From a bacterium (lineage in GTDB: Bacteria; Auribacterota; UBA3054; JAPLST01), in the NCBI GenBank assembly GCA_026417575.1, contig JAOACZ010000128.1:5127-69126 (forward strand): a stretch of 64,000 nt of DNA, read 5' to 3'. The stretch's first letter is position 1; each line of letters opens with the position of its first letter. Shown here in pieces: positions 51,049 to 51,597 of the stretch. The notes under the pieces were generated by a model that saw nothing but the letters and a program-made list of their open reading frames with translations, did no database searches and was not told the origin of the DNA. A program made the translations under genes and the position numbers.

Positions 51049-51597
51049 TTACTTACGATGTGGTGGAATGGTGCCTGGAGCGAGCAGTTTGGTTTCAATC
51101 ATGAAGGCAAGGCGATCAGGCTTCGTAGTACCAACGAGGCGATACTGTTCACGGCCGGCGCGGAAGAAGACAAAGGTCGGAACAGAGAGGATAGTGTATT
51201 GAGGTTCGAGCTTGCGCAGGGCGGGCTTACTGATGTCCACTTCGGCCACGCACACTTGGTCAGCAAAGTCACGTGCCATGCGATGCAGAGTGGGGAGCAT
51301 CATGACGCAGGGTGCGGACTTGCGCTGATGAAACATGACCAGGACAGGGAAGGAGTTACTAAGGACTTCGCGGACAAACTCAGCGGGTAGTTCGACGGAG
51401 AACACCGCGCCGGTGGTACTGGTGCGGAGAGGTTGGCCAGTGGCCGGCGTGACGAAATTAGCGAGTGTGGTGGTTCCTTGTGCTGTGGGAGGGGCCGCGG
51501 GCGGCGTGGTGGTCGGGTTCTCGCGTGAACAGCCGGCCATCACGCCGATCATCGTCATCGCGCTCAGCCACGCTGTGCCAACCTTCCGCGCCCGCAT
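51049..51597 (-). CDS. Thioredoxin-fold lipoprotein with an atypical SxxC active site
   Basis: Lipobox VMAGC after an N-terminal signal. The Trx fold aligns VLVMFHQRKSAPCVMMLP to VLVDFWAEWCGPCKMIAP, so the first active-site Cys is replaced by Ser. Confidence 0.55.
   Translation of the reverse strand: MRARKVGTAWLSAMTMIGVMAGCSRENPTTTPPAAPPTAQGTTTLANFVTPATGQPLRTSTTGAVFSVELPAEFVREVLSNSFPVLVMFHQRKSAPCVMMLPTLHRMARDFADQVCVAEVDISKPALRKLEPQYTILSVPTFVFFRAGREQYRLVGTTKPDRLAFMIETKLLAPGTIPPHRK

Follow-up and report, generated by a model that had tools for sequence, protein, structure and literature searches.

What does a thioredoxin fold do beside an intact DsbD once it has lost the first of its two active-site cysteines? 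The question is raised by a gene for a small lipoprotein, here called TrxL, in a 64,000-nucleotide stretch of DNA from an uncultivated bacterium (GenBank assembly GCA_026417575.1, contig JAOACZ010000128.1, positions 5,127 to 69,126; GTDB lineage Bacteria; Auribacterota; UBA3054; JAPLST01), referred to below as the window. An initial annotation, made from the letters of the sequence alone, had described TrxL as a thioredoxin-fold lipoprotein with SxxC in place of CxxC and had proposed that it might be a redox-inactive adaptor, a substrate-trapping partner, or a protein that uses its single Cys in mixed disulfides. We conclude, with moderate confidence, that TrxL arose by degeneration from a DsbD-client thioredoxin of the periplasm and now persists as a non-catalytic binding or adaptor module that works without thiols. 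The gene and its parts are as follows.

51049–51597, minus strand: TrxL gene, stop codon included, encoding a 182-amino-acid thioredoxin-fold lipoprotein (open reading frame list, Pfam PF00085, seven orthologues)
51529–51597, minus strand: predicted signal peptide with lipobox VMAG-C, residues 1–23 (read from the sequence)
51415–51528, minus strand: variable linker rich in Pro, Thr and Ala, residues 24–61 (~40 amino acids), predicted to be disordered (predicted local distance difference test score, pLDDT, 47–59)
51082–51414, minus strand: classical TrxA-type thioredoxin domain, residues 62–172 (pLDDT >90, Foldseek, domain ratio of nonsynonymous to synonymous substitution rates, dN/dS, 0.03–0.11)
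51307–51318, minus strand: degenerate motif S94-A95-P96-C97 replacing CGPC (DNA TCC GCA CCC TGC; alignments)
51250–51252, minus strand: Cys116, the second Cys of the domain, in strand beta3, aligned with Thr54 of E. coli thioredoxin (alignment and model)
51178–51180, minus strand: Pro140, equivalent of the thioredoxin cis-Pro76 of the substrate-binding loop (aligned to thioredoxin 'IPT')
51052–51081, minus strand: C-terminal tail APGTIPPHRK, residues 173–182 (near-invariant in the core clade)

The only Pfam match of TrxL above its cutoff is PF00085, Thioredoxin (E=1.8e-12; 47.6 bits, cutoff 23.5), Thioredoxin_2 and DIM1 being sub-threshold, and its score against the curated thioredoxin equivalog TIGR01068 (48.6 bits) lies under the cutoff of 96.8. 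An AlphaFold2 model of TrxL, built from a 13-sequence alignment, has pLDDT >90 across residues 61–172 and the classical secondary structure pattern of thioredoxin. A Foldseek search of the PDB with this model returned plain thioredoxins, with E. coli TrxA superimposing at a root-mean-square deviation of ~1.1 Å and a target template modelling (TM) score of 0.92. The N-terminus, MRARKVGTAWLSAMTMIGVMAG followed by Cys, fits a lipobox, so that by pattern judgement only Cys23 is predicted to be lipidated and to begin the mature protein. Cys23-Ser-Arg-Glu is invariant in all eight core sequences (TrxL of the window and its seven orthologues; alignment A1), and in every member of the wider family described below [AG]-C closes the hydrophobic stretch, while position -2 of the lipobox is an unusual His or Trp in some orthologues. 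As judged from sequence and model, TrxL is thus an exported, membrane-anchored lipoprotein with a thioredoxin fold, as initially annotated. The linker differs in sequence and length between orthologues. The C-terminal tail is modelled with low to medium confidence and is missing from distant relatives. The thioredoxin domain of the core clade is basic (isoelectric point 9–10, versus 4.7 for E. coli TrxA).

The reading of KSAPC at the position of WCGPC is borne out by phmmer alignments to solved thioredoxins, in which 'fhqrkSAPCvmmlp' is aligned below 'fwatwCGPCkmvap', and FHQRKSAPCVMMLP below FWATWCGPCKMVAP. S94, P96 and C97 thus take the places of Cys32, Pro34 and Cys35, respectively. Two further catalytic residues have gone: the equivalent of Asp26 is Met88, invariant in the core orthologues, and that of Trp31 is Lys93, which varies among them (K/T/G/N). 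The substrate-binding side of the fold has fared differently. Pro140 (in 'SVPT'), equivalent by alignment to the cis-Pro, is invariant in alignments A1, A2 and A3, the hydrophobic groove residues of thioredoxin are retained, and the surroundings of the dead active site rank among the best-conserved segments of TrxL.

A search of 5.8 billion protein clusters returned only seven orthologues, 60–72% identical to TrxL, and a metagenome scan added one new locus (L016), the full-length form of the orthologue P0006. Ser94 is present in all seven, encoded by TCC, TCC, TCG and TCA at the four loci with readable DNA; because it is invariant and its four TCN codons are synonymous, we ruled out both a sequencing error and a strain-specific mutation. 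Selenocysteine at position 94 is likewise ruled out, the codon being TCC and not TGA. So is a misalignment that conceals a CxxC, since the sole other Cys of the domain, Cys116, lies in strand beta3. By homology to Thr54, Cys116 would face the side of the sheet opposite helix alpha2, and a disulfide between it and Cys97 is unlikely. Neither of the findings that the initial annotation would have taken as refutation, a CxxC in orthologues or another Cys in the active site, was therefore encountered. Conservation of SxxC as a whole is another matter: the Ser is kept throughout, whereas position 97 is Cys in six of the eight core sequences and Ser in the other two.

Oxidoreductase activity depends absolutely on the first Cys of CxxC (PMC6282202), and the natural SQHC variant of E. 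coli, CnoX (YbbN), has no reductase activity, which S35C restores (PMC10998233). Because of these two precedents TrxL is expected to be neither a dithiol oxidoreductase nor a conventional substrate of DsbD; from the established need for the first Cys, it would lack oxidoreductase activity altogether. The suggestion of a substrate-trapping partner fails on the same chemistry, because a mixed disulfide is trapped by keeping the nucleophilic Cys at the N-terminal position and removing the resolving one, as in CxxS or CxxA (PMC6282202), and the arrangement in TrxL is the opposite. The description of SxxC as the reverse of the common CxxS variants is correct, although the reverse form has precedents in E. 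coli CnoX (SQHC) and TMX2 (SNDC).

In the window, TrxL is the second gene of an apparent five-gene operon, the other features of which are listed here.

51622–52137, minus strand: first gene of the apparent operon, a TIGR04073-family secreted protein (NCBIfam TIGR04073, 50.0 bits, equal to the cutoff)
50800–51030, minus strand: FmdB-type zinc-ribbon protein of 76 amino acids, between TrxL and DsbD (Zn_ribbon_8 at 1.5e-12, TIGR02605)
49189–50781, minus strand: DsbD with three domains, alpha, transmembrane beta and thioredoxin-like gamma (Pfam DsbD_N, DsbD_TM, Thioredoxin_7)
46133–49192, minus strand: AsmA/DUF748-family protein of 1019 amino acids (Pfam AsmA 2e-14)
52208–52237, minus strand: candidate sigma-70-like promoter 5′ of the cluster, weak evidence (TTGCAA-18-TACAAT, TG-preceded, 9/12)

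The complete three-domain DsbD two genes downstream of TrxL, noted from the outset, is real, and its Cys pairs are present: the alpha pair (YQGCSAAELICFPP; YQGC...C) and the gamma pair (WCKNC) align with those of solved nDsbD and cDsbD, and both Cys of the membrane domain (TPCVLPM, GACVAP) are seen in the sequence. The genes are separated by 24, 18, 18 and -4 nucleotides. The last of these is an overlap of the AsmA-like start with the DsbD stop (49189–49192), which recurs at L001, L004, L005, L014 and L016. The conserved AsmA-like gene, which went unremarked in the initial annotation, lies 3′ of DsbD at these five loci and at L010, and follows it wherever the contig extends that far; its DUF748 match (1.6e-11, 43.5 bits) falls under the 50-bit cutoff. 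A scan for promoters and terminators was at chance level, with a number of sites near chance expectation, except for the one plausible promoter upstream of the cluster.

All core-clade loci share the order TIGR04073-like gene, TrxL, FmdB zinc ribbon, DsbD and AsmA-like gene, with differing flanks. Beyond them, a profile search of 1.84 billion representatives, in which the core clade is a single 50% cluster, found as next relatives lipoproteins of similar length. Their motifs and, where given, their gene contexts are as follows.

P0009: motif SVPC; TrxL, zinc ribbon, DsbD, AsmA/DUF748, HflX
P0042: motif SAPC; TrxL, DsbD, AsmA, HflX, with overlapping genes
P0158: motif SAPC
P0014 and P0015: motif SAPS in both; TrxL, then zinc ribbon, the contigs ending at or just after the zinc ribbon
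P0011: motif CAAC; TrxL, then the N-terminus of a DsbD homologue 37% identical to the DsbD of the window

Wherever a contig reaches DsbD (the core clade, P0009, P0042 and P0011), TrxL lies directly 5′ of it or is separated from it by the zinc ribbon alone, and P0011 is the only DsbD-linked member to have the nucleophilic Cys. Within the DsbD-linked family, then, a degenerate motif is the norm and CxxC exceptional. The link to DsbD extends to lineages whose TrxL is only 26–39% identical to that of the window, which makes it stronger than could be seen from the window sequence itself. Unlinked lipoprotein thioredoxins that carry CxxC and have similar scores (P0039, P0045) do not adjoin DsbD.

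The family comprises ~13 sequence clusters, all from uncultivated bacteria. Named homologues of the window DsbD (45–51% identity) come mostly from metagenome-assembled genomes (MAGs) of Kiritimatiellae, Lentisphaerae and Verrucomicrobia, and the sequences weakly suggest that the hosts of the family belong to the Planctomycetes–Verrucomicrobia–Chlamydiae (PVC) group. When the family profile was run against the GTDB representative genomes, it gave only unrelated Bacteroidales thioredoxins (28% identity), so that none of these genomes carries the family. In named MAGs of Kiritimatiellae and Lentisphaerae, DsbD homologues (~48% identity) have neither TrxL nor an AsmA-like gene beside them, and the module is therefore no general feature of the PVC group. 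These DsbD genes (L021, 5081–7632; L022, 5453–7635) follow genes for rubredoxin and rubrerythrin or ferritin and precede pentose-phosphate genes (6-phosphogluconolactonase, glucose-6-phosphate dehydrogenase), a different context that resembles oxidative stress. Given synteny across divergent members, unlinked CxxC thioredoxins and bare DsbD loci in the PVC group, the module of TrxL and DsbD is specific, rare, and old relative to the divergence of its members.

The second Cys of the motif is dispensable. The core orthologues P0007 (L004) and P0008 (L005) have SAPS, with AGC in place of TGC at position 97, and the mature domain of P0008 contains no Cys at all (Ser at position 97, Arg at position 116), even as its genome retains the full operon and every Cys motif of DsbD. 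A bootstrapped neighbour-joining tree of concatenated DsbD and AsmA-like proteins (1473 columns) groups L005 with L001 and L016 as (L005_SAPS,(L001,L016)) at 98%, nesting a SAPS locus among SAPC lineages. The window joins this clade at 74.5%, L004 with its SAPS falls outside, and the Cys-bearing L010 and L014 are the outgroups. Since L005 nests among SAPC lineages and L004 branches separately, position 97 has changed at least twice in the core clade, a minimum estimate, as it comes from distance trees of few taxa; P0014 and P0015 represent a further SAPS lineage. Because the Cys-free orthologue is encoded in the same operon and is under the same constraint, the conserved function of TrxL would be thiol-independent.

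The constraint itself is strong. Whole-gene dN/dS is 0.09–0.27 for TrxL versus 0.08–0.19 for DsbD, and for the thioredoxin domain only it falls to 0.03–0.11, so that the gene is not decaying. In the sole pair that is unsaturated (L001/L016, synonymous divergence dS 0.30), the TrxL domain has a dN/dS of 0.056 versus 0.19 for DsbD.

Together these results fit the following scheme best. The ancestor was most likely a periplasmic thioredoxin and a client of the neighbouring DsbD. It would have lost the nucleophilic Cys32 (now Ser94), the buried Asp26 (now Met88) and Trp31, the protein being kept as a non-catalytic module. The conserved surface of the former active site (FHxRxSAPxVMM, the cis-Pro loop LSVPT, and RLVGTT) may bind a partner without thiol chemistry. 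TrxL would do so while tethered by its lipid, and the partner, proposed from conserved gene order only, may be the periplasmic domains of DsbD, the AsmA-like envelope protein encoded in the operon, or both. Of the roles put forward initially, the redox-inactive adaptor is the one that the evidence supports best, on account of the Cys97-to-Ser changes in P0007, P0008, P0014 and P0015, the Cys-free P0008, the loss of Asp26 and Trp31, and the constraint on the domain. A bolder version, in which TrxL, without any Cys in certain species, serves as an obligate, non-catalytic part of a hitherto undescribed envelope module and physically couples DsbD to a membrane-bridging AsmA-like protein in an uncultivated lineage of the PVC group, strikes us as improbable; if true, it would link periplasmic reducing power to outer-membrane biogenesis.

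Several points weigh against a thiol-independent module that serves DsbD. The partner is assigned by gene order and by nothing else, and other DsbD homologues of the PVC group have no such neighbour, so that TrxL is no general requirement of DsbD. The retention of Cys97 in six of eight core members and in P0009, P0042 and P0158, and of Cys116 in seven of eight core members, hints at thiol use in those proteins. The sequences are a handful, all metagenomic; dS is saturated in most pairs; and the trees are neighbour-joining trees only, with 74.5% support at one relevant node.

The cysteine retention is the starting point of the best surviving alternative, that TrxL is a monothiol redox protein in which Cys97 or Cys116 forms mixed disulfides with Cys of clients or of DsbD-alpha, for example protecting or handing over periplasmic thiols in the way that CnoX and TMX2 use a single Cys. 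We consider this unlikely, though it has more behind it than the Cys counts: Cys116 brings to mind the additional Cys that SXXC-type CnoX conserves (PMC6282202), TMX2 reportedly uses its SNDC motif, C170 being marked as catalytic (bioRxiv 10.1101/2024.04.12.589228), and the intact DsbD next door could resolve such disulfides. Yet the four SAPS orthologues and the Cys-free domain of P0008 occur in the same conserved operon, and position 97 has changed at least twice. Cys97 is by homology the buried resolving Cys35, and the activating Asp26 is replaced by Met. In E. coli CnoX the reactive Cys is not that of SQHC, and Cys116 of TrxL aligns to Thr54 in strand beta3 and is Arg in P0008 and without conservation in the wider family. 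Because of the SAPS and Cys-free orthologues, the single-Cys mixed disulfides envisaged initially cannot be the conserved function of the family; a monothiol role of this kind is possible in SAPC members only.

The AsmA-like gene offers a second alternative, in which TrxL is the lipoprotein partner or anchor of the AsmA/DUF748 envelope-spanning protein and not of DsbD, the adjacency to DsbD being a historical leftover. In its favour, the cluster has kept the AsmA-like gene, the start of which shares 4 nucleotides with the end of DsbD, and TrxL is tethered, with a long linker and an invariant C-terminal tail specific to the core clade. Other AsmA-like proteins use lipoprotein or outer-membrane partners. 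But TrxL always adjoins DsbD or the zinc ribbon and never the AsmA-like gene, the CxxC-bearing P0011 lies upstream of DsbD, nothing in sequence or structure connects AsmA-like proteins with a thioredoxin fold, and a search of the literature for such proteins together with DsbD came back empty; we therefore hold this alternative to be quite improbable.

It is very unlikely that TrxL is a metal-binding protein, for example for Cu(I), like thioredoxin-fold proteins of the Sco or ScsC type, with Met, His and Cys as ligands. In the core clade M88, H90, C97, M99, M100, H105 and M107 do cluster around the motif, and in Scs systems a DsbD-like protein is linked with copper homeostasis (PMC10907172). 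However, these Met and His residues vary across the wider DsbD-linked family (the domain of P0042 has one Met and that of P0158 none, and P0009 is without both His), several candidate ligands occupy positions that are buried in the thioredoxin core (Asp26, Ile38), and Cys97 is dispensable. Least probable of all is a decaying relic, a functionless pseudo-enzyme, as the loss of the catalytic Cys, Asp26 and Trp31 and the variable second Cys might suggest, because in the same pair the domain is under tighter constraint than DsbD, no locus has a broken reading frame, the segment of the former active site ranks with the best conserved, and gene order persists down to 26–39% identity.

The other members of the cluster have features of their own. 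The zinc-ribbon protein has CxxC…CxxC and a conserved C-terminal CGM..QLP.CP.GGCG.C, and is without a signal peptide. It is found at the same place at L004, L005, L010, L012 and L016 and on the P0015 contig and is absent at L013 and L014; by family, it is kept at core-clade, P0009, P0014 and P0015 loci and is absent from those of P0042 and P0011. The TIGR04073 protein (the family is exosortase-system-associated) ends in a tail rich in Cys and Pro (…CPPSCPPACPPPCGECK), with similar CPPxC-rich tails in its orthologues at L001/L002, L004, L005 and L016. The gene is confined to the core clade, being absent upstream of the P0009 and P0042 relatives, and with so many cysteines in its tail the product may be a true client of the neighbouring DsbD. 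At L005 (9133–10410), L010 (12615–13892) and L014 (12215–13498), the gene after the AsmA-like one encodes an HflX-type GTPase. The window has at this place a 1263-amino-acid transglutaminase-like/DUF3857 protein (41748–45539, minus strand).

Elsewhere in the window, the listed start of an M29 aminopeptidase (52089–53366, plus strand) overlaps the 5′ end of the divergent TIGR04073 gene (51622–52137, minus strand); since its Pfam match does not start before residue 68, translation probably begins downstream of the listed position. The plus strand also has a strong sigma-70-like match at 52242–52270 (TTGACT-17-TATAAT, 11/12). The window also encodes a 691-amino-acid protein with a Peptidase_C10 (streptopain-type) domain (26704–28779, plus strand) and a 611-amino-acid M14 carboxypeptidase (19975–21810, minus strand). 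Several large open reading frames have no Pfam match, among them 5867–9130, 40525–41958 and 53308–54081, and a scan of the window with Rfam gave two tRNAs only.

If our interpretation of TrxL as a binding or adaptor module is right, it is a bacterial periplasmic pseudo-enzyme, an oxidoreductase partner of DsbD turned into a non-catalytic binding module under strong selection. It would extend the theme of SxxC and Cys-less thioredoxins from the cytoplasm and the eukaryotic endoplasmic reticulum (CnoX, TMX2, PDILT) to the bacterial envelope. Practical consequences are limited, since the family is rare and confined to uncultivated organisms. The analysis also draws attention to the conserved pairing of DsbD with an AsmA-like gene. 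In the literature we could search, an incomplete library, we found no description of this pairing, nor of a periplasmic or lipoprotein SxxC thioredoxin.

How, then, does TrxL compare with the systems that are known? With canonical TrxA it shares the fold of five strands and four helices in the order beta-alpha-beta-alpha-beta-alpha-beta-beta-alpha, the cis-Pro loop, the Pro34 equivalent and the register of the active-site helix. Unlike TrxA, which is cytoplasmic, it is exported and lipid-anchored, and has Ser for Cys32, Met for Asp26 and no Trp31. TrxL thus belongs to the thioredoxin superfamily by sequence and fold, and falls outside thioredoxin proper, lacking CxxC, Asp26 and the equivalog score.

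E. coli CnoX likewise has SxxC in place of CxxC and a second Cys away from the motif. It is cytoplasmic, however, and has a C-terminal tetratricopeptide repeat (TPR) domain that is essential for its holdase function, whereas TrxL carries a signal peptide and lipobox, has no TPR match and ends 10 residues past the thioredoxin domain. In SXXC-type CnoX the second Cys is conserved and serves for mixed disulfides; Cys116 of TrxL is at N18, against N24 in CnoX, and is present in seven of the eight core sequences, being absent in P0008 and the wider family. CnoX was not among the best matches of TrxL by sequence (phmmer) or by fold (Foldseek), and membership of CnoX/YbbN is ruled out by the missing TPR domain and by export.

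Clients of DsbD (CcmG/DsbE, TlpA, ResA, ScsC and the surface Etrx lipoproteins) resemble TrxL in being membrane-tethered envelope proteins encoded beside a DsbD-family transporter. They differ in that TrxL has no redox-active disulfide for DsbD-alpha to reduce. TlpA, ResA and CcmG have an N-terminal hairpin and a central insert, whereas TrxL has the plain TrxA-type fold, and among its Pfam matches there is no Redoxin or AhpC-TSA; with these fold additions and the corresponding matches missing, membership of this group is ruled out. Nor does TrxL have the dimerisation domain of DsbC and ScsC or a DsbA-like insert, its best structural matches being plain thioredoxins.

In eukaryotes, the motif of TMX2 is SNDC (bioRxiv 10.1101/2024.04.12.589228), and PDILT is described as having no catalytic cysteines (PMC4894388). 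Like TrxL, these two proteins and the b and b′ domains of protein disulfide isomerase (PDI) have lost the first catalytic Cys, and they act through binding or chaperone roles or a single Cys. Their lineages, compartments and domain architectures are unrelated to those of TrxL, and the likeness is one of analogy only. A catalytically dead thioredoxin fold is therefore a theme already known; what is new here is its setting, in the bacterial envelope and in an operon with DsbD and an AsmA-like protein.

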